DNA from: a virus
Lineage: Duplodnaviria > Caudoviricetes
Direction: 5' to 3' (one strand)
DNA length: 64,000 nt
IMG/VR virus record: IMGVR_UViG_3300027365_000007
Of this stretch, positions 21,307-44,640 are shown one piece after another. Position 1 is the stretch's first letter. Each line of letters starts with the position of its first letter. The notes beneath the pieces were generated by a model that had not been told where the DNA came from, did not search any database, and was given only the letters and a program-made list of their open reading frames with translations. A program made the translations under genes and the position numbers.

Positions 21307-21861
21307 TTACTCTACGTCAGCATCCCTGTATTTCAACATTGCCCAGCGTCCACTTAATGTCTTAGGTAATTCAACCTCATGCGCTTCTTTAATAGTGAAT
21401 GGGCGATTCTTCACCTTACTGAAAAACTCACCTTCATGACCCATCACAGGATTGCCTAGTACAACTTTTTCACCTTTTGGTGGAAAAGCATCAGGGTTAT
21501 CACTAACACCCAACAAGTATCCCTTCTTGCCATGAGGTTTTAGGAACACACTATCCTGATCATACAGTTCGCCGTATTCAGGTAGTTTTACAAATATACT
21601 AGGACTTTTATCGGTTTGAACTACAAAGAAACTTTCTTCTTTAACCTCACGTTCATTCTCAGTACCATAATTCTCAATGTAAGAGCCATGGATACGTGTT
21701 ACATCAAAACCATCACTCAGTAGTTTTGCTTTAAGTGATAAGCTATTAAGCTTATTTTGCGAGGCATTTTTATCCCCACGATAAGCACTAATCATACCTG
21801 TATCATATGACTCGAACTTACTTCTAATTCGATTTAGACTTTTCTCATTTAGTGTTTGCAT
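21307..21861 (-). CDS. Late protein with leader MQTLNE (T4-like phage hypothetical family)
   Basis: LNE-KSLNR, ISAYRG, GSYIE, EESFFV, YDQDSV; AATAAATA upstream. Confidence 0.65.
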   Translation of the reverse strand: MQTLNEKSLNRIRSKFESYDTGMISAYRGDKNASQNKLNSLSLKAKLLSDGFDVTRIHGSYIENYGTENEREVKEESFFVVQTDKSPSIFVKLPEYGELYDQDSVFLKPHGKKGYLLGVSDNPDAFPPKGEKVVLGNPVMGHEGEFFSKVKNRPFTIKEAHEVELPKTLSGRWAMLKYRDADVE

Positions 21862-24794: not shown

Positions 24795-25160
24795 TTAACA
24801 TAGTAATTTCAATTTTTTCAAGTCGTCGCCGATATCATCTTCATGAATTGGACCGATGCCCAAACATGTAACGGTAGGTTCGTTAAAAACTGTAAACCCT
24901 GCGTCTTTAATGAATGCTACGCCACAAACATCGTAATACGCCCTCAGAAGCATTTCAAGCTCTTTTTCGGTCTCGACAACACAGGTGATCTTCTTAGCGT
25001 GTGTACTGTCCATGTACGCCTGTGCAGCCTCTGGGAATCGCTTTTGTGCATCCCACCATGAATGAAGATACGCATGTCCTGCCTGAGAGCAGAGTTTACC
25101 ACGATTACCATTCATCTTCTTAAGTGCTTCTTTAGAAACAATACAATAAATCTTTTGCAT
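24795..25160 (-). CDS. pth2: Peptidyl-tRNA hydrolase type 2
   Basis: M..NRGKLCSQAGHA, KKIT, IKDAGFTVF.EPTVTCLGIGP. Confidence 0.9.
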   Translation of the reverse strand: MQKIYCIVSKEALKKMNGNRGKLCSQAGHAYLHSWWDAQKRFPEAAQAYMDSTHAKKITCVVETEKELEMLLRAYYDVCGVAFIKDAGFTVFNEPTVTCLGIGPIHEDDIGDDLKKLKLLC

Positions 25161-25383: not shown

Positions 25384-25755
25384 CTATTGCCTTTTACCTT
25401 TGAAAATTTTCTTTAAAAAACTTTTAATACGCGTAATAAAGAATAGATCACCTATTCCTTCATTTACATATACAACCTCTGGCGCTTCTACGGTTTTATC
25501 TACCATATTGTTATCCGTTGAGTTCTCGGGTACAAAGGCAGGCGACTGCGTGTCTACACCATAGATCCAACCACCTTCAACACGCATGACTTTGATGTAG
25601 TTGGGGTGAATCCCGACACCAATATCATATCTTCTAGTAGTGGTCCCAATTTGCAACATCATCGTTTCATGAAGCTTTAGGTCGTAAATGGTTTTATCAC
25701 TATTACCACTTTTACCATGACGCCAATAGGTATCAATGCCGGGATTCATAGTCAT
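25384..25755 (-). CDS. Hypothetical protein (123 aa)
   Basis: ORF in operon. Confidence 0.6.
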   Translation of the reverse strand: MTMNPGIDTYWRHGKSGNSDKTIYDLKLHETMMLQIGTTTRRYDIGVGIHPNYIKVMRVEGGWIYGVDTQSPAFVPENSTDNNMVDKTVEAPEVVYVNEGIGDLFFITRIKSFLKKIFKGKRQ

Positions 25756-25756
25756 A

Positions 25757-26323
25757 TTATTTCCCCTGTTGTTGTTTCTTAAGATCTTCCTTGAGTTTCT
25801 TAAGTGTAGATTTATATGTCTGTTTTACATGATCAAAGTCAAGTTCGCTATCTTTGATTGGATCAAGATCGATATAGATCTCTGGTTCACGATTCATACG
25901 ATGGATAACAAGATGTTTCATAACGTTAATGGTTTCCATCATGACTTTGAAATAATCTTCGTTAAGAACGGTAGAACGTTGTAGAAAATCTTCCATAGCT
26001 TCATTATTCTTAACTTTCTTAGCTTCCTTAGTGATCTGTTGGGAAAGAAAGTCATATTCAGCAAAATATTTTGCGGCGGCAGCATATGACTTATTGTACA
26101 CTGCGTTTTCAAGAACAAATAGTAGATTTGTCTTGATCTGGGTCATACGCACTTGCATAGGGTAGATAACATTGGATACAGGTTCGATCTCTTTTACAAG
26201 CTTTGTTCTTTTTTTATGATTTGGCTCATCATCCATACGAACGATAATATTTTCGGACATTTGCTCATCAATTGTTTTGATAAGGGATGTCGCAGCTTGA
26301 TAGTTTTCAATGTTATGTTTCAT
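25757..26323 (-). CDS. Hypothetical helical protein (188 aa)
   Basis: RBS GAGGG. Confidence 0.7.
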   Translation of the reverse strand: MKHNIENYQAATSLIKTIDEQMSENIIVRMDDEPNHKKRTKLVKEIEPVSNVIYPMQVRMTQIKTNLLFVLENAVYNKSYAAAAKYFAEYDFLSQQITKEAKKVKNNEAMEDFLQRSTVLNEDYFKVMMETINVMKHLVIHRMNREPEIYIDLDPIKDSELDFDHVKQTYKSTLKKLKEDLKKQQQGK

Positions 26324-26397
26324 ATATATATACCCTCAAATGATGATAATTTAACATTATTATACCTTATCAAATTTTCAATGACAAGGTGTGATTT

Positions 26398-26541
26398 TGG
26401 GGATGGCGGGGATTCGAACCCCAACCCGGAGATAGCCATTATTTGGTTGTACGGGCCAAAAACTGACACCTCGGGGCTTGTATTGCAAATGTTTCATAGA
26501 CCGGCTAAAACATAGACAACACGCAGACCGTCTCACCATCC
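26398..26541 (-). ncRNA. tRNA-like 144-nt RNA (acceptor stem, D-arm and T-arm; no canonical anticodon loop; large insert)
   Basis: 5' GGATGG pairs with 3' CCATCC; D-stem AGAC/GTCT; T-arm GGGG-TTCGAAT-CCCC; ends ...CCCCA. Confidence 0.7.
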
Positions 26542-26551
26542 ATATTGTATT

Positions 26552-26581
26552 ATTGTATCATGAATAAAGTTGCTACTGCAA
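26552..26581 (-). promoter_or_regulatory. Promoter for the tRNA-like RNA
   Basis: TTGCAG-18 nt-TACAAT with extended -10 (TGATACAAT). Confidence 0.55.
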
Positions 26582-26635
26582 TACCTTTTCTAAGTGCATC
26601 CAAAGCCTTTTGATGAGAATCGAGTGGAACTAACA

Positions 26636-26989
26636 TTATACATTTCCTCCAATTACCATTGAGTATCGTGCGTAAAGACCTTCTAATTCAGGAACGGTGA
26701 ACCAGAAGTTATGTTCGACTGTGGAAATACATTTACATTTCCCACATTCTTCCCAATAAAGAATGTACGTTTTGTCACGATCAATTGGCACAGCTTTTTT
26801 CTGTGCACTAATAAACGCAACTTCGCGATATCCCAACTCATGTTCACAACGCTTTTTCCAAATCTCAAGACATTGCTTGCACAACGATGTTGGATATCTC
26901 ATTACTTTATAGTCAGGATGTTCTGAACATCTTTTTATATTACCATATTCGTATTCGGTTTCAAACATATCGATCCCCTTGTGGCTCAC
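26636..26989 (-). CDS. Cys-rich hypothetical protein
   Basis: CSEH...CKQC; CEH...CGKC. Confidence 0.6.
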   Translation of the reverse strand: MSHKGIDMFETEYEYGNIKRCSEHPDYKVMRYPTSLCKQCLEIWKKRCEHELGYREVAFISAQKKAVPIDRDKTYILYWEECGKCKCISTVEHNFWFTVPELEGLYARYSMVIGGNV

Positions 26990-28188
26990 ATTTCATCTAT
27001 ACGTTTTTCATAATCATGTATTTCTTGAAGCATATGGTTATAAAATTCCTTATAGGAATCAGTACAATAATCTTGGCCTGCATAATGGGATGGTACAAAT
27101 GTCCCATTGATACAATGATCATACCATTGAGTAAATAAGTGAAAGTCTTTGACTCCTTCTATGTCCAAGTCCCCGGAGACAATCATTTTTCTATATATTC
27201 CTAGAGGGGCATAGTGTCTTTTATTATCAGATGAATTACTCTTCTGTCGAATAATATCATATACCATTTGTGTTTCATAGACCGAGAGGTCTATGTCTTC
27301 GTGATTTTTTTCGTAAAAATCATATAATGATATGAAATTATCTATTGTACTTTTGAAGTTATCCTCCCCCTCCAAAATATTCTCCATATATGAAATGATA
27401 CGATCCCTACTCAAGTCGTTATTATTCATTTGTAACTGATCAATAATAATACACACAAAATACTCGAAGTTATTCATTATATTGATCAGTTCTGCTTTTC
27501 TCTTGTCGTCATTGGGCAGAATTTTACCAATAGCATGGTCAATATCAACGTCGTTATCAGTAAAGCGATTTTTGGCTTCAAAAATATATTTTATAAACAT
27601 ATTCGAAGCACTACTTTTAAACATGTCGCTTTTCTTCTCATGAAATGAAACGTCCTGATATACAAGTTCATCATCTTCAAAGAAGGGATGTTGATACTCA
27701 AAGGTACCTGAAAGAATTCGATCATAGATAGACTTTTTGATGACAAAAGGGTGCACCATCATAGGAGTATTTTGAGGTGTGATAACAGTTTCATCGTTTT
27801 CAAATTCAATATCTTCAAGGTAGTTATTATATACATTTCGAACATATAGGTACTGCTCATGCATGTAATGGAAAATGGTATCTATGTTTAAGTTAGCCTT
27901 GGTCATTGGTGTATCAGTGTTGACTATATGTTTTTGGTTTTTAACTACCATAGCATAATCATCCAAGAACTCATTAACATATTCTCTTGTCTTTTCTGGA
28001 ATGTTAAAAACGCACTGTCCGTAGTCATCATATACTCCATCCATGAGGAATGGAAACAGAAGACTATACTGTGTACAAGCCCCAATCATGTTATATGTAT
28101 GGTTTTTAACCAAAAAACCAACCTTTACGTCATCGTCGTACTCAATTGGTGTGTTACTTATTGAACATGAAATGCTAAAACTTCCCAT
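26986..28188 (-). CDS. Hypothetical protein (400 aa)
   Basis: Long ORF; MGSFSISCSISNTPI...GVYDDYG. Confidence 0.75.
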   Translation of the reverse strand: MGSFSISCSISNTPIEYDDDVKVGFLVKNHTYNMIGACTQYSLLFPFLMDGVYDDYGQCVFNIPEKTREYVNEFLDDYAMVVKNQKHIVNTDTPMTKANLNIDTIFHYMHEQYLYVRNVYNNYLEDIEFENDETVITPQNTPMMVHPFVIKKSIYDRILSGTFEYQHPFFEDDELVYQDVSFHEKKSDMFKSSASNMFIKYIFEAKNRFTDNDVDIDHAIGKILPNDDKRKAELINIMNNFEYFVCIIIDQLQMNNNDLSRDRIISYMENILEGEDNFKSTIDNFISLYDFYEKNHEDIDLSVYETQMVYDIIRQKSNSSDNKRHYAPLGIYRKMIVSGDLDIEGVKDFHLFTQWYDHCINGTFVPSHYAGQDYCTDSYKEFYNHMLQEIHDYEKRIDEM

Positions 28189-29163: not shown

Positions 29164-31379
29164 ACCATCCACTTTTTGTTAAAGTCTTCAATATCCTGTG
29201 TTACAGAATTGTCGATAACAACGTCCGCATCTTCAGGTGTATCTGCGATTTTCATGTTGTTAGCTTTCGCCAAAATTTCAAAGTAATCCCACATTTTCAT
29301 ATGGGCTTTGTTCACATTCAAAATATGTTTGATCTGAATGTCAATACTTTTTGAGCGTGACGACAAATTAGAACTAGTAATGTTATGTTCCGGCATGTCT
29401 GCCCAATACATCACATTTCTATCGATATCATAGATAGTACACAAAACGGCTCTAGCATTACATGTCAAGTCAAAGCGGTCAGTGATGGTCTTAGGATCAT
29501 ATACCTTATTATCACCTTTGCTATTATTACACATAAAGCCTGTATAAGCTTCAAATTCATCCAGCTTCTGAGACGAAAAAACGTTAACATAGGTCACTAC
29601 GTATTTTGCACCATTGTTCGAACGCTTAAGCTTGTCAATGTCTACATCCACGAACTCACTAGCACCATTTGGCGCACTAGTTATATCGCCTGAATGAGTA
29701 GAATACTTCCCATGTGTAGAGTAGTATGAACACTCTTCGACGTATCCAAGTCCTTCATCATAGATTTTAATAGACAGATCTAAATCTACGCAACCCGATA
29801 TATCGTTTTCTTTCCAGTATGTGAAAAAACGAATGTAACCAGTATCATCAAGATTAATACTTGACCCACGCTCAGCTTTAAACATACTGTCCTTCATTGA
29901 ACGAAGCTTCAATGGCATAATTCGATTTTTCAGCACTGGATCGATATAAATGGTTTTACCACTAATATCATTGTTCTTTAGTTTATTAGCGATGACGTTA
30001 TCAATACTTGCGATGATTTTCTCACAATTCTCGTCTGAAATATCTTCACGGGTTTCTTCAATAAGATTCAAGAATCCATTTACGTTAATGTATACGCGTT
30101 CGGATTCATAGTGATGAATCCGCATACTGAAGTTATCTCGTGCGGAGATCAACACTCGCATTGAGGCGTCATGTCCACAAGTTTCGAACTTTGATAGAAT
30201 AGTTTCAATGGATTCAGGAAACTTTCGACAGATACTATCCAAGTTTCTTACAAAAATACCCGGACGAGATACCACAAGATCCAACACCTTCGAAAGATCC
30301 TTATCTTCAATAAGTGCTTTCTGTAATTTACCATCAAACGTCTTGATAGTGTTTGCATGGTTCAATACAGTATCAACAGCCTTAAATGCATTCGGGTATT
30401 TCTTTCGAAACGTACCGAAGTGTACAGACATATTCAAGGCAACCCATTTTTCACGCTTCTTAACCATATCTTCGTATGGGTTGCTGATATGGTTAAGGCT
30501 TTTTGCAACAAACTTACGGCACTTGTTATTAAGTTTAAATTTACCATCGGGATTGTCTGATAATTGATTCAGTTGTTCCGCAATGCGCATCACATCATTT
30601 GCAGTTTTGATAAAACCTTTAGTCATATCATAAACTTCATTGTATGCACGAGTTTTTAGAAGCTCATTGACAACGATTGATACAGTTTCCTTGAAGGGAA
30701 TTTCGCCTGAAAAAACATAGCTTGTTTCTTCTTCATCCATCTCTACTAAAGCGTTTTTAAAAAACTCGATCTGAAGAAGAGTCATGCCATTACGAGATTC
30801 CACACAACTCTTTACGAGTTCTACGATATCAGAACGATTAAACAAATTAATAGCTTTAGGTGTGTGATTAATACGCGAACAATCAACACTTTCAAGCAAA
30901 TCTACTTCACTAACATCACCTGCACACTGAGGACATTGGCCTTCTGACATGTATCCGACGACAACATGACCACATGGATACGTGTCATGATCGGTCAACA
31001 CATCCATATCACCAGAAGTACTGTTGAGCAGATCTAGTAGACGAGCATTGATTGACTTTGAATTTCCATGCACCAATGTACTCTGTGGTACTGAATTCGG
31101 AAAGTTTCTGTATAGTGGACGCATCCTAACATTAACACCCACCATGTCTGATAGTGTTTCGAATGTATTGTCTACCAATGATTTAAATTCATTCTCAGGT
31201 AGTGTTTTAATGGCGCTTCTTGCTTCTTCTGACAAATAAAAGCCCATCAGAATAAGCTCATGATTGAATGCATCAATCAGTGTGTCGTCGATATGACACA
31301 CTGGATCGGTACCATCAATGTAAATGTTTTGATTGCTTCTGAGTGCAATCCAAATAAAAGTTTTATTTGTCACGTTCAT
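29160..31379 (-). CDS. Large helical-repeat protein with C-terminal TerD-like domain
   Basis: FFTYWKE...DLDLS...HSGDITSAPNGASEFVDVDI; N-terminal CGH...CPQC. Confidence 0.7.
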   Translation of the reverse strand: MNVTNKTFIWIALRSNQNIYIDGTDPVCHIDDTLIDAFNHELILMGFYLSEEARSAIKTLPENEFKSLVDNTFETLSDMVGVNVRMRPLYRNFPNSVPQSTLVHGNSKSINARLLDLLNSTSGDMDVLTDHDTYPCGHVVVGYMSEGQCPQCAGDVSEVDLLESVDCSRINHTPKAINLFNRSDIVELVKSCVESRNGMTLLQIEFFKNALVEMDEEETSYVFSGEIPFKETVSIVVNELLKTRAYNEVYDMTKGFIKTANDVMRIAEQLNQLSDNPDGKFKLNNKCRKFVAKSLNHISNPYEDMVKKREKWVALNMSVHFGTFRKKYPNAFKAVDTVLNHANTIKTFDGKLQKALIEDKDLSKVLDLVVSRPGIFVRNLDSICRKFPESIETILSKFETCGHDASMRVLISARDNFSMRIHHYESERVYINVNGFLNLIEETREDISDENCEKIIASIDNVIANKLKNNDISGKTIYIDPVLKNRIMPLKLRSMKDSMFKAERGSSINLDDTGYIRFFTYWKENDISGCVDLDLSIKIYDEGLGYVEECSYYSTHGKYSTHSGDITSAPNGASEFVDVDIDKLKRSNNGAKYVVTYVNVFSSQKLDEFEAYTGFMCNNSKGDNKVYDPKTITDRFDLTCNARAVLCTIYDIDRNVMYWADMPEHNITSSNLSSRSKSIDIQIKHILNVNKAHMKMWDYFEILAKANNMKIADTPEDADVVIDNSVTQDIEDFNKKWMV

Positions 31380-31870
31380 ACATTTTCACCATTAGTATAT
31401 TCGTACTCACTCATCTTATCAGTAAGGAACATATAAGAGCGTTGATATTTAATCATGCGCTTAACGTCCTTATCACTAATACCTTTGAGGCGTGAGATAT
31501 TGGAATTATCTTTCAAATCTGCAATTTTAACTTTAATACAGTCAGGATTACTCTTTACACCAAGAATGTACTTAATGTAACTATCATCAGCATCGTGTGT
31601 CAGAAGTTTGAGAGCATCAATCACCCGTGGTGAGAACCCCATATTAATTAAATCTTTCAATGTAATATCAGTATCCTCAACCACATCATGAAGAACCGCA
31701 ATCTGTTGAAGCTCCGGGTCATCATCAGGCATAGCTGACATAACACGAATAAGGTGTAGAGTATAAGGCTTACCACCCTTATCAAGTACGCCATTGAATT
31801 TTTCAGCGGCGAGGGCAATTGCTTTTGATAACATTTCCCACTGATTATGAACACTATGAGACATATTCAA
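31376..31870 (-). CDS. Stand-alone RelA/SpoT-type HD hydrolase (Mesh1/SAH-like)
   Basis: DKGGKPY..H...AVLHDVVEDT...VKIADLKDN. Confidence 0.85.
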   Translation of the reverse strand: MNMSHSVHNQWEMLSKAIALAAEKFNGVLDKGGKPYTLHLIRVMSAMPDDDPELQQIAVLHDVVEDTDITLKDLINMGFSPRVIDALKLLTHDADDSYIKYILGVKSNPDCIKVKIADLKDNSNISRLKGISDKDVKRMIKYQRSYMFLTDKMSEYEYTNGENV

Positions 31871-33429: not shown

Positions 33430-34242
33430 TCATGTCCATAACGATGTACGAATATTAAGAAGCCGTCTTAACATTTTTTCATCGTCCTTCTCAAACTCAT
33501 CTTCAAGATTATTCATTCGATCTAAACTTTCATGCAACTTCTTGTAATCATCTGGGTGATCTAGTGCAAATCTTGCATCTAGTATCAGCGCCCCTGAATA
33601 CTTTTTATTATATGTAACCCATGGTTCTTGGGACATATCTAATCGCTCTGACTCAGCTACGTCTTCCCTTTCATCTAGAATCTCAGTATACCACATATAC
33701 AATGCAAACAGTTCCGTATAAAAATCTTTGTTTTCATCATCATCATTAGTGCGCTCTATGATATGGTGTAAGCCCAGTTCCTTTGAGCGAAAGAATGCTT
33801 CTGCTATACCAAATACATCAAAATTATTATTCAACCATAGTCGCTTTTTGTATGCCTCATACAATGGATGGTCCTTGTCCATTGAAATAAATTCCAACCA
33901 AGCCAACTCTATTTCAACATAATCAACGACTAAAGCAAACATGGCATGTAGCATTCTCACATCTGCATCATAGTATCCGGGCGGTAAGGTAGTTTTCACA
34001 ACATGCAAACGTTGTGTTGTACGATACCTAACCCAATCCTTGACCTTATCTAAATGAGGTTTTATACATGCATGATAGTCCCTAGCAAAAAACATATCAT
34101 AAAGGTACGATATTCTATTTGGAATTATACGAAATAGTACAAACCTGAATTTATGATCCTTTTTATATTCATGCAAACTACTGTACTCGGGCTCAAGTTT
34201 CCTTAAGCCCTTAAGTACTAGCTTACTAATTTCTTCAATCAT
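33430..34242 (-). CDS. Hypothetical protein (270 aa)
   Basis: Long ORF in operon. Confidence 0.7.
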   Translation of the reverse strand: MIEEISKLVLKGLRKLEPEYSSLHEYKKDHKFRFVLFRIIPNRISYLYDMFFARDYHACIKPHLDKVKDWVRYRTTQRLHVVKTTLPPGYYDADVRMLHAMFALVVDYVEIELAWLEFISMDKDHPLYEAYKKRLWLNNNFDVFGIAEAFFRSKELGLHHIIERTNDDDENKDFYTELFALYMWYTEILDEREDVAESERLDMSQEPWVTYNKKYSGALILDARFALDHPDDYKKLHESLDRMNNLEDEFEKDDEKMLRRLLNIRTSLWT

Positions 34243-35023
34243 GATCTACCAGCCTACTACCTAACGAAAGATTTTTGATTTCATTAAACGACAAGTTTTT
34301 AAATGCATTACATTTAATCTTGTGTCGTGTATATTCACGCGATTGAGGCTTTTTACCATCTGGGATTTTTGCCCAAATATGATCAGGAATCACATTATTT
34401 TCAAGACGCTTATATACATAAACACCATATTTGAAATCGTCTGGAAATTCATCCCAAACAACAGCACACTGATCTTCGAGCATTTCGATAACATCTTCCC
34501 GACTTCTCTTATGCATCTGCTTTTTATTCAGGAAGTGATGACCGACCATAGATACCGAGTTACGAACACAATCATGCTGACGCCATAGAATAGAATTAAC
34601 GGCTTCGTTATAATCAGGGACGTTGAATACTCTGGCATCAAAGTGTGGTACACTTTTTGAAACATGCTCTGGCCATACTTTCATAGCTTCAATAACAAAT
34701 TTCGATGTAGCTGTCGCTGATAAAACACTGACCAACTTCTGAATCTTAGCATCGAAAAATAGGTCTGGCTTAGGCACAATAATTGAAATCTCATCACTTT
34801 GGGTATATGCCAAGCATCCATCACATTCCTTCATGACATGTTCGGCGGTTCGGGTCATAACATGTCTAAAGTCTTCGTCATACGGACGTTTAAAGTTTCG
34901 GGTGAAGTTACTAAACCCGCGTCCATCTAAACGAACAATGACTGGAAGATTTTTATCGAGCCGTTGTTCAGTTTGCTTCTTTTCGTACATTTTCATACGC
35001 TTAGCAAAATCGGTATTGTCCAT
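34235..35023 (-). CDS. thg1: tRNA(His) guanylyltransferase Thg1-like 3'-5' polymerase
   Basis: RMK.YE, VRLDGRGFS.FT, YTQSDEIS, FDARVF, WRQ.DC.RNS. Confidence 0.92.
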   Translation of the reverse strand: MDNTDFAKRMKMYEKKQTEQRLDKNLPVIVRLDGRGFSNFTRNFKRPYDEDFRHVMTRTAEHVMKECDGCLAYTQSDEISIIVPKPDLFFDAKIQKLVSVLSATATSKFVIEAMKVWPEHVSKSVPHFDARVFNVPDYNEAVNSILWRQHDCVRNSVSMVGHHFLNKKQMHKRSREDVIEMLEDQCAVVWDEFPDDFKYGVYVYKRLENNVIPDHIWAKIPDGKKPQSREYTRHKIKCNAFKNLSFNEIKNLSLGSRLVDHD

Positions 35024-43711: not shown

Positions 43712-44640
43712 TTCTTCCCCTTGATAAATTGATCATAGATTGTATCATGTTCTTCTTCTATATCATCGCTCCAATCAAATTCGTCATCTTCATTGCATTC
43801 TGATTCTAGCTGTTCCATGATGATAGAGTCGTGATGCTCATTGATATTTTCTACTAAATTATCTACTTGTGTATTTAATAGAATCCCATTTATATCGTTT
43901 TCAGCAAACTCAAATTCATTACATTCTTTAAACTTTACTGGATTCTTTTTGAAATAGTCAGCAATGGCCACTGCGGTTGTAAAACCTATCAAACTTCCAA
44001 TTAAGTATGCATAGTCATCATCAACTTTCTTTTTTAACTTTTTAGGAAGATATGCATATACTTGGTTTGGTTTAGGCTTTGGAGCTTTAGGGTTTTCTTG
44101 TTGATATTCCTTATACATGTCATGCATTGACTTGTACATCTTTGTATATTGTGGGCGGTATTTCGCCAACACTTCTTTCTCAACATCCCCATTCAAGCCA
44201 AAAGATGTTATTAGATCTTCAAAAAAAGGCTTACTATATATCTTGTTATTAGCTTGATATTTTGGAAGCAACGCATTGTAGTGAAAATAATACTGGTCTT
44301 TTAAGCGCTTAGTAATTTGCTTCACCTGCTTTTTCATTTGAGGTGACATACGTGCATTAAACTTCGTAGTTATTTTTCGCATAGCCTTTTTATAAGAATC
44401 CTCAGCACCAGACTTTATATCTTGCATAAGATTCTTAGATTGTGAAAATATCTTTGATAAACTGCTACGAAGCCCTTCATCCAATTGTTCACTTTCCATG
44501 TACATGAACAAAAAAGACATGCCATGGTCGTCTTCAAATATTTCATAAGACGGTAATTCATTTATCTCTTCTATGAAATCATCAGAGGCTTCGTATGAAG
44601 CCTCGTCTAATAACTGACGATATTTTTTAATATCATTCAT
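43708..44640 (-). CDS. Putative prohead core / internal protein
   Basis: Many (L/I)xE sites (LDE, LVE, INE, IME); acidic termini. Confidence 0.5.
   Translation of the reverse strand: MNDIKKYRQLLDEASYEASDDFIEEINELPSYEIFEDDHGMSFLFMYMESEQLDEGLRSSLSKIFSQSKNLMQDIKSGAEDSYKKAMRKITTKFNARMSPQMKKQVKQITKRLKDQYYFHYNALLPKYQANNKIYSKPFFEDLITSFGLNGDVEKEVLAKYRPQYTKMYKSMHDMYKEYQQENPKAPKPKPNQVYAYLPKKLKKKVDDDYAYLIGSLIGFTTAVAIADYFKKNPVKFKECNEFEFAENDINGILLNTQVDNLVENINEHHDSIIMEQLESECNEDDEFDWSDDIEEEHDTIYDQFIKGKK

Follow-up and report, generated by a model that had tools for sequence, protein, structure and literature searches.

Does a phage RNA that folds like a transfer RNA (tRNA) and carries no anticodon represent a gene in its own right, and if so, of what kind? 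The question is raised by a locus on the minus strand of a 64,000-nt stretch of DNA (the window) from the Caudoviricetes record IMGVR_UViG_3300027365_000007 of IMG/VR, for which an initial annotation, made from the letters without database searches, had proposed a tRNA-shaped RNA lacking an anticodon. The pieces described there are indeed present on the minus strand, where they assemble into an element of 142 nt running from G1 to a discriminator C at positions 26400-26541; on the 108.8-kb host contig its locus is 43848-43991. The element is, with near certainty, a real, conserved, structured, non-coding and non-decoding RNA gene with the architecture of a class II tRNA, and it is single-copy in both phage records, that of the window and that of a marine relative described below. 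It represents an undescribed RNA family of a few uncultured giant T4-related phages. The kind is already known, that of phage-encoded stable tRNA-like RNAs such as T4 RNAC and RNAD, but the family is new, has another topology and is absent from Rfam.

Folded as a single sequence, the element forms a five-helix cloverleaf with a minimum free energy (MFE) of -53.5 kcal/mol (z = -3.66), and none of 200 shuffled sequences was as stable. G-U pairs, which occur in several of its helices, identify the minus strand as the functional one. ARAGORN found no tRNA or transfer-messenger RNA (tmRNA) gene anywhere in the window, and with introns allowed made no call on the element at default stringency; the Gly, Pro, Ser and Gln calls produced by relaxed settings were mutually inconsistent and were thus treated as noise. 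No Rfam 15 family matched the element at its gathering score. With E values of up to 10 accepted, the matches consisted of noise (mir-1537, mascRNA with 14.3 bits against 42.5, and others) together with the T-arm of tmRNA, and neither the tRNA model RF00005 nor the Y RNA family was among them.

The evidence for conservation comes from relatives located through the neighbouring gene. Marine metagenomes contain homologues of the 188-aa protein encoded downstream of the element, with 47-64% identity and in part on Tara Oceans contigs as long as 462 kb, and in six marine lineages (L010, L111, L114, L117, L122 and L125) a 145-nt element lies directly upstream of the corresponding 188-202-aa gene, with PTH2 and NUDIX genes further downstream as in the window. 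The marine element possesses the acceptor GGCGGAU/GUCCGCC, the same T-loop, a discriminator C and a long arm at the variable-arm position (arm B), and the open reading frame (ORF) list of L010 holds no ORF of at least 50 aa over it. At the anticodon-arm position (arm A) it has a 9-bp hairpin, the stem of which varies among the lineages by compensated changes and the 16-nt loop of which, containing CCGGUC, is constant. RNA identity among the marine lineages amounts to 90-99%, compared with 68-97% for the adjacent coding sequence and 59-92% for the spacer that precedes the start codon; in every marine pair the RNA exceeds both in conservation, and most of its differences are the compensated changes in the stem of arm A.

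A covariance model (R2) was built from the six marine sequences only, with the structure specified by hand and the window sequence left out. In a search set of ~106 kb that included all tRNA loci of the phage and the T4 tRNA/rnaC region, R2 recovered the window element over its full length (model positions 1-145) with 41.9 bits and an E value of 1.2e-8, while the next-best matches were ordinary class II tRNAs with no more than 12.9 bits. With this full-length match, the same helices and the same genomic position upstream of the orthologous 188-202-aa gene, the window element belongs to the same family as the marine ones. The seven sequences were compared over 43 pairs in a model-fitted alignment (A6) and in a nearly collinear, sequence-only MAFFT alignment (A4). 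Standard pairs filled 96% of the pair cells in A6 and 94% in A4, and 17 and 13 pairs, respectively, had changed on both sides; the real value was reached by none of 500 shuffles of either alignment. Sliding the partners by 1-3 columns left pairing of 39-50% in A6 and 38-50% in A4. The double-sided changes are located in the acceptor stem (3 pairs), in arm A, in arm B from its lower through its middle to its apical part, where they include A-U to G-C and U-A to C-G, and in a mini-hairpin of the D region. Taken together, the element is more than chance.

The resulting layout resembles that of the class II tRNAs (Ser, Leu, bacterial Tyr and Sec) in its junction of five helices, where a long arm separates the anticodon arm from the T-arm, its 7-bp acceptor, its UUCGAAU T-loop, its discriminator base and a D-loop-like GGUC segment, which stands in a short 5' linker. 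The annotated acceptor GGATGG/CCATCC is present and extends to a canonical stem of 7 bp, GGAUGGU/GCCAUCC, followed by the unpaired discriminator C (26400); the T that had been taken for a U8 equivalent is better read as part of a U7-G66 pair that completes this stem. In place of the proposed D-stem AGAC/GTCT the comparative data favour a 3-bp hairpin, ACG/CGU, with a 5-nt loop at positions 11-21, in which GG is not kept in all members and the register of which is less certain than that of the other helices. At the anticodon position the annotated stem was recovered as AUGUUU(UA)/(UG)AAACAU, closing a loop of 9-13 nt that contains CCGGUC. The whole of arm A, however, departs from the 5-bp stem and 7-nt loop of a tRNA anticodon arm, having ~17 bp and a 9-nt loop in the window and 9 bp and a 16-nt loop in the relatives, and no 7-nt loop of the anticodon type is conserved.

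Preceding the T-arm, the annotated insert of ~65 nt is real as a structured segment of ~56 nt, but its supposed likeness to the tmRNA pseudoknot PK1 does not hold, the segment forming a rod-like three-part helix instead. As a variable arm it is far longer (~50-55 nt) than those of class II tRNAs (13-21 nt), from which the element also differs by its D-stem cut to 3 bp, by its discriminator C and by its failure in RF00005 and ARAGORN. The T-arm is canonical, as had been stated, with a 7-nt UUCGAAU loop of the UUCRANY type on a GGGG/CCCC stem; the T-stem of the relatives has five layers with a U-C mismatch, and both mismatched nucleotides are absent in the window, leaving a clean 4-bp stem. Loop-loop (kissing) pairing between arms A and B could form a 7-bp duplex in the marine type, whereas in the window it is only interrupted and at non-homologous positions, and such a contact is not claimed. 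No antisense target of the arm A loop beyond chance was found in the 108.8-kb genome, the single 12-nt match being same-sense and not complementary. A C/D-box-like UGAUGA in the marine linker was dropped from consideration, as it is not conserved in the window. Coordinates of the parts and of neighbouring features are collected in Table 1.

Table 1. Parts of the tRNA-shaped RNA and features flanking it, in window coordinates.
Feature	Position	Strand	Evidence or remark
Predicted mature tRNA-shaped RNA, positions 1-142	26400..26541	-	Full-length R2 match; MFE z = -3.66
Acceptor stem, 5' strand GGAUGGU	26535..26541	-	3 of 7 pairs changed on both sides relative to relatives (GGCGGAU/GUCCGCC); 100% paired
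Acceptor stem, 3' strand GCCAUCC	26401..26407	-	Pairing and covariation on both alignments
CA after discriminator C	26398..26399	-	Reads CCA with the preceding C; relatives have C followed by UCG or CUA
Mini D-like hairpin ACG / loop GUCUG / CGU, positions 11-21	26521..26531	-	Same columns pair in relatives (AGG/UCU); 1 pair changed on both sides, 1 on one side
Arm A, anticodon-arm position, long interrupted helix with 9-nt loop GCCGGUCUA	26480..26520	-	MFE fold; equivalent 9-bp stem covaries heavily in relatives, loop constant
CCGGUC loop motif of arm A	26499..26504	-	Identical in 7/7 sequences (A4 and A6)
Arm B, variable-arm position, rod-like three-part helix, ~56 nt	26423..26478	-	Collinear with arm B of relatives even in the sequence-only MAFFT alignment
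T-arm GGGG / UUCGAAU / CCCC	26408..26422	-	T-arm match to RF00023 and further families
5' leader AAUAU, ending in U(-1)	26542..26546	-	Relatives: AUUAU before G1
Extended -10-like motif TGATACAAT, 10 nt upstream of G1	26552-26560	-	Read directly; not conserved in relatives
28-codon ORF remnant upstream of the RNA, carrying the extended -10	26550..26636	-	BLASTN 70% identity over 128 nt to L010
Promoter-like site TTGTCA-17-TATAAT of the 188-aa gene	26359..26387	-	11/12 matches; begins 11 nt after the RNA
Conserved 188-aa gene, always immediately downstream of the RNA family	25757..26323	-	Homologues in relatives
PTH2 peptidyl-tRNA hydrolase, downstream	24795-25160	-	E 1.6e-16
Thg1-family gene (PF04446), upstream	34235-35023	-	E 1.7e-36

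Given that the alignment to relatives makes the C at 26400 the discriminator, a complete CCA is not clearly encoded in the element, although the letters of the annotated 3' CCCCA are there (...CCAUCC-C-CA). At the other end, the extended -10 promoter that had been assigned to the RNA exists as a sequence motif in the window, where the two-hexamer promoter scan does not list it because it has no -35; the marine relatives are without it and have an ORF stop codon 8-10 nt upstream of the RNA. The 28-codon remnant that carries the motif corresponds by homology to the beginning of a 174-aa ORF located ~2.6 kb upstream of the RNA in L010, and it overlaps the stop of an upstream 117-aa ORF (TAATG). 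About 2.5 kb with four or five genes of the marine relatives is absent from the window, so that the RNA gene has come to lie next to the ORF remnant. No terminator-like site was found in 25500-27500, and thus none between the RNA and the downstream gene, the 188-aa product of which is helical, belongs to no Pfam or PHROG family and gave nothing informative in the Atlas.

Several genes for handling tRNA ends or stalled translation lie in the same region. Besides PTH2, a NUDIX hydrolase gene follows downstream on the same strand, and arfA is found upstream of the RNA. The Thg1-like gene noted 8 kb away proved to be a true member of its family, and its product has as closest solved relative the Bacillus thuringiensis Thg1-like protein 4KGK (E 2.7e-26) and not a eukaryotic Thg1. 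The Thg1-family and arfA genes occupy matching positions in the marine relative, and jumbo phages have been described to carry such tRNA/RNA-repair and rescue sets (PMC7824862). The host record, a 108.8-kb fragment estimated to be 25% complete, also possesses an ordinary tRNA complement of 14-16 genes, which form a cluster between contig positions 214 and 15126, at a distance of ~28 kb from the element. Elsewhere in the window, a 164-aa protein (31376-31870, minus strand) shows a weak match to HD_4, a RelA/SpoT-type HD domain (E 6e-4, below the Pfam cut-off), and a protein of the S-adenosylmethionine lyase family (E 1e-10) is encoded at 21307-21861 on the minus strand.

So far, members of the family have been found in a small clade of phages only. 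None of 50,697 phage records matched in BLASTN, be the query the element itself, its marine homologue or the 1.2-kb region, and the pattern AGGTGT...TATCT...GGTTCGAATCC matched only the known relative (the L010 contig) in IMG/VR. In the JGI metagenomes the pattern search gave 16 matches, of which only the already known contig was real, the others being class II tRNAs. A second IMG/VR pattern, TAATGGCTA...GGGTTCGAATCC, was discarded since nearly all of its 92 matches were ordinary tRNAs or tmRNA 3' ends; TAATGGCTA is common to both sequence types and is not positionally homologous between them. Searches for related loci with the 400-aa upstream protein found nothing, and those with the alignment of the 188-aa protein returned the same single contig only. 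The window variant occurs in a subsurface metagenome, its probable source, with partial flank matches in freshwater metagenomes; contigs of four DNA runs contained no variants and did not cover the element outside the probable source sample. The whole marine homologue is present in contigs assembled from metatranscriptomic libraries, in two studies on record as RNA, which is suggestive of expression.

Which function would fit such an RNA? We tentatively favour tRNA mimicry, as a decoy, sponge or scaffold, which is the most likely of the explanations considered while falling short of an even chance. U at position -1 favours bacterial RNase P. The RNA would be transcribed from its own extended -10 in the window phage and, in the marine relatives, as a read-through product of genes upstream, and a cut by RNase P after U(-1) would place the 5' end at G1. 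Because there is neither a terminator nor a complete encoded CCA, the 3' end would probably be made by tRNA-type trimming to the discriminator and subsequent completion of CCA. With its acceptor/T-arm minihelix the RNA would then pass for a tRNA among proteins acting on tRNA ends; specificity, and exclusion from the ribosomal decoding site, would come from the two rods together with the invariant CCGGUC loop. In this way it may act within the tRNA and translation-stress gene set of the phage (PTH2, Thg1-like and ArfA), in a manner analogous, and not homologous, to T4 RNAC.

Several observations weigh against this explanation or limit it. The sequencing runs that contain the window variant are DNA only, with no RNA run listed, and no protein came to light as a candidate partner, the 188-aa neighbour being uninformative. 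The absence of a clearly encoded CCA contrasts with 12 of the 14 ARAGORN-called tRNAs of the same phage, which do encode it. The GG contact between D-loop and T-loop is not clearly conserved, three relatives having AG. There are only two sequence types, one of the window and one of six near-identical marine variants, so that a single divergence accounts for much of the covariation. Since the genomes are collinear, the co-occurrence of PTH2, Thg1 and ArfA is not independent evidence of an association with the RNA. Finally, neither phage fragment yielded a gene for SmpB or for TROVE (PF05731), the absence of TROVE carrying little weight since the genomes are fragments.

Of the competing explanations, the most probable, though still unlikely, is that the fold is a processing or punctuation element, that is, a site for RNase P and a 3' endonuclease that separates an upstream transcript from the mRNA of the 188-aa protein, with the released RNA as a by-product. 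tRNA punctuation and the MALAT1 mascRNA are precedents for tRNA-like folds as processing sites, and signals of the mascRNA type share with the element a tRNA-like fold between transcription units without a terminator, probably cut by RNase P. The conserved leader ending in U(-1), the position of the next gene's promoter, just past the RNA with no terminator before it, and the start of the marine RNA so close behind an upstream stop codon, with no promoter motif of its own, all agree with such a role. However, RNase P needs the acceptor/T-arm minihelix only, and mascRNA-type signals are minimal cloverleaves of ~60 nt, whereas the element has large conserved extra arms; that the arms, a 6-nt loop and the linkers are also conserved (90-99%, against 59-92% for the flanks) weakens this explanation, because everything beyond the minihelix is maintained. 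Furthermore, the window element has its own -10 motif and follows a mere 28-codon remnant.

A second possibility, which we consider improbable, is a chargeable mimic of tRNA-His, in which, after cleavage by RNase P, the Thg1-like protein would add G(-1) opposite C73 and HisRS would charge the product for a use outside normal decoding; such uses could include that of a tmRNA-like acceptor without a tag, its peptidyl form being released by PTH2 of the phage, or that of an aminoacyl donor. C73 together with G-1 forms the bacterial tRNA-His identity set, and both sequence types have kept C as the discriminator. A Thg1-family gene exists in both phages, 4KGK being the closest solved relative of the window protein, PTH2 and ArfA are encoded in the same region, and no tRNA-His was seen in either phage fragment. 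Thg1-like proteins are documented to add templated 5' nucleotides opposite C73 (PMC3061083). On the other hand, G(-1) is not encoded, position -1 being U, and the Thg1-like gene lies 8-11 kb off with nothing that ties it specifically to the RNA. Neither an SmpB gene (in the phage fragments) nor G3-U70, a resume codon or an ORF was found, and the long rods may not fit the ribosomal A-site. Given that the two genomes are only 25% and 54% complete, a normal tRNA-His may lie elsewhere in them.

Also improbable is that the element descends from the species 1 RNA of T4, RNAC, through a common T4-like ancestor and has diverged beyond recognition, although the design invites the comparison. Both are phage-encoded RNAs of ~140 nt (RNAC has 139 nt) with a 7-bp acceptor-like stem stacked on a 3' T-arm, two long extra hairpins and no anticodon. 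The T4 rnaC and rnaD sequences were taken together with six diverged rnaC homologues, and a model of the seven rnaC homologues (R1) gave the window element 8.9 bits (E 4.2), compared with 8.8 bits for an ordinary tRNA, so that the homology to T4 rnaC raised in the initial annotation found no support; conversely, R2 found nothing at T4 rnaC (L103 searched). The topology differs as well. In rnaC, a 7-bp terminal stem and a T-arm are combined with a large hairpin inside a D-stem (AGG/CCU) and another hairpin occupying the anticodon position, with no variable arm, while the arms of the element stand at the anticodon and variable positions. The hairpin loops of T4 rnaC (L103:4909-5047; homologues L104-L109) are perfectly complementary, UUGACG/CGUCAA, and those of Yersinia phage TG1 rnaC have changed together to UUGAUG/CAUCAA, implying a conserved loop-loop contact; the loops of the element are not clearly complementary and covarying in this way. 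In addition, rnaC resides inside a tRNA cluster, from which the element is far removed in its own phage. With no detectable homology and a differing topology, T4 RNAC is the closest known analogue and not a demonstrable relative. The roles of T4 RNAC and RNAD are unknown (PMC3014915).

Less probable still is a reduced relative of tmRNA or a decoy for SmpB. The combination of an acceptor and T-arm with a weak or absent D-stem and long non-tRNA helices does recall the tRNA-like domain of tmRNA, and the phage carries arfA, the control of which depends on tmRNA. The annotated likeness of the insert to tmRNA nevertheless found no support: RF00023 matches only the 15-nt T-arm (model positions 348-362) with 12 bits against a gathering score of 47, ARAGORN reports no tmRNA, and the insert consists of plain nested helices supported by covariation, with no pseudoknots. 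As had been noted, there is no G3-U70, pair 3:70 being A-U in the window and C-G in the relatives, and no tag ORF, in agreement with the negative tmRNA search; the length of 142 nt also differs from the ~350 nt of tmRNA, and the phage fragments yielded no SmpB gene. Y RNAs of the YrlA type, which some jumbo phages possess (PMC7824862), likewise mimic tRNA without coding and contain a T-arm, but the ends of YrlA form a Ro-binding stem around an internal tRNA-like module, whereas those of the element form a normal acceptor stem.

Least probable of all is a decaying, non-functional or intron-containing tRNA, such as a class II tRNA-Ser with insertions: the weak next-best R2 matches are class II tRNAs that include the phage's own tRNA-Ser (12.8 bits), and the 5' linker GAGACGGUC resembles the tRNA-Ser D-loop GAGCGGUC, but conservation far above the flanks and compensated substitutions in every long helix speak for strong purifying selection, and, as described above, Rfam, ARAGORN with introns at default stringency and the search for a conserved 7-nt anticodon loop gave no sign of a tRNA, ordinary, interrupted or decayed. 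We also discarded a reading as attP or a tRNA 3' fragment, since the 5' acceptor strand is there, matching and covarying, and the surroundings showed no sign of an integrase.

Other tRNA-like elements were observed in relatives at a greater distance. Among them, large tRNA-shaped RNAs (~152-220 nt; L124:480-635, L120:1926-2077 and L123 ~1398-1617) form a second family, which is unrelated to the first and sits close upstream of the same conserved 188-202-aa gene. Its members have a 7-8-bp acceptor, a UUCGAUU T-loop, a small hairpin and a very long variable arm, together with a 5-bp stem, the 8-nt loop of which, GUAGUUGA or GUUGUUGA, might represent an enlarged anticodon loop; AU precedes G1 at the end of the leader, and UCA opens the trailer. 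They receive no call by ARAGORN, Rfam or R2. Next to one of them, L124:390-469 holds a tRNA-like gene of ~80 nt with the anticodon loop CUUCUAA (Arg UCU), an encoded CCA, 4 nt in place of a D-arm and an extended variable region, which scores 28.7 bits with RF00005, just below the gathering score of 29, and is not called by ARAGORN. After the large RNA, a conserved non-coding stretch of ~100 nt (L124 ~640-760 and L123 ~1620-1730, e.g. ...CAGUGUUCGCCUUAAAGCUGAAUGUGG...) may be a further small RNA. In L120, a T-arm, an acceptor 3' strand and ACCA (1892-1919) directly follow an HNH_3 endonuclease ORF (1426-1881), which suggests that a homing-endonuclease insertion has split a tRNA or tRNA-like gene or become fused to it (1426-1919).

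Returning to tRNA mimicry as the favoured function, a more specific form of it can be envisaged, which we regard as a long shot: the RNA could be a chargeable or enzyme-trapping tRNA surrogate that works with the tRNA-end enzymes of the phage. It is possible that the Thg1-like protein adds G(-1) opposite C73 and so confers histidine identity, the RNA then serving as a tag-less, tmRNA-like acceptor that takes over nascent chains from stalled ribosomes for release by PTH2. Alternatively, the RNA may be specialized as a decoy and sequester host defence enzymes that recognize long-variable-arm tRNAs or the acceptor ends of tRNAs. If true, either version would for the first time assign a function to the T4-type stable tRNA-like RNAs, a class known for 50 years.

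T4 RNAC and RNAD have been without a known function for about fifty years, and the element adds to them an independent, non-homologous family of the same general design, with an acceptor/T-arm minihelix, two long arms and no anticodon, here in giant aquatic T4-related phages and in the vicinity of genes for peptidyl-tRNA hydrolysis, tRNA 5'-end repair and ribosome rescue. Since the family is missing from Rfam and invisible to tRNA finders, similar phage RNAs have probably been overlooked. With its well-defined structure and invariant loop, the family makes predictions, namely processing by RNase P, addition of CCA and possible use as a Thg1 or HisRS substrate, that can be tested in vitro without phage culture. 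The convergence on one design suggests that phages make recurrent use of tRNA mimics that do not decode.

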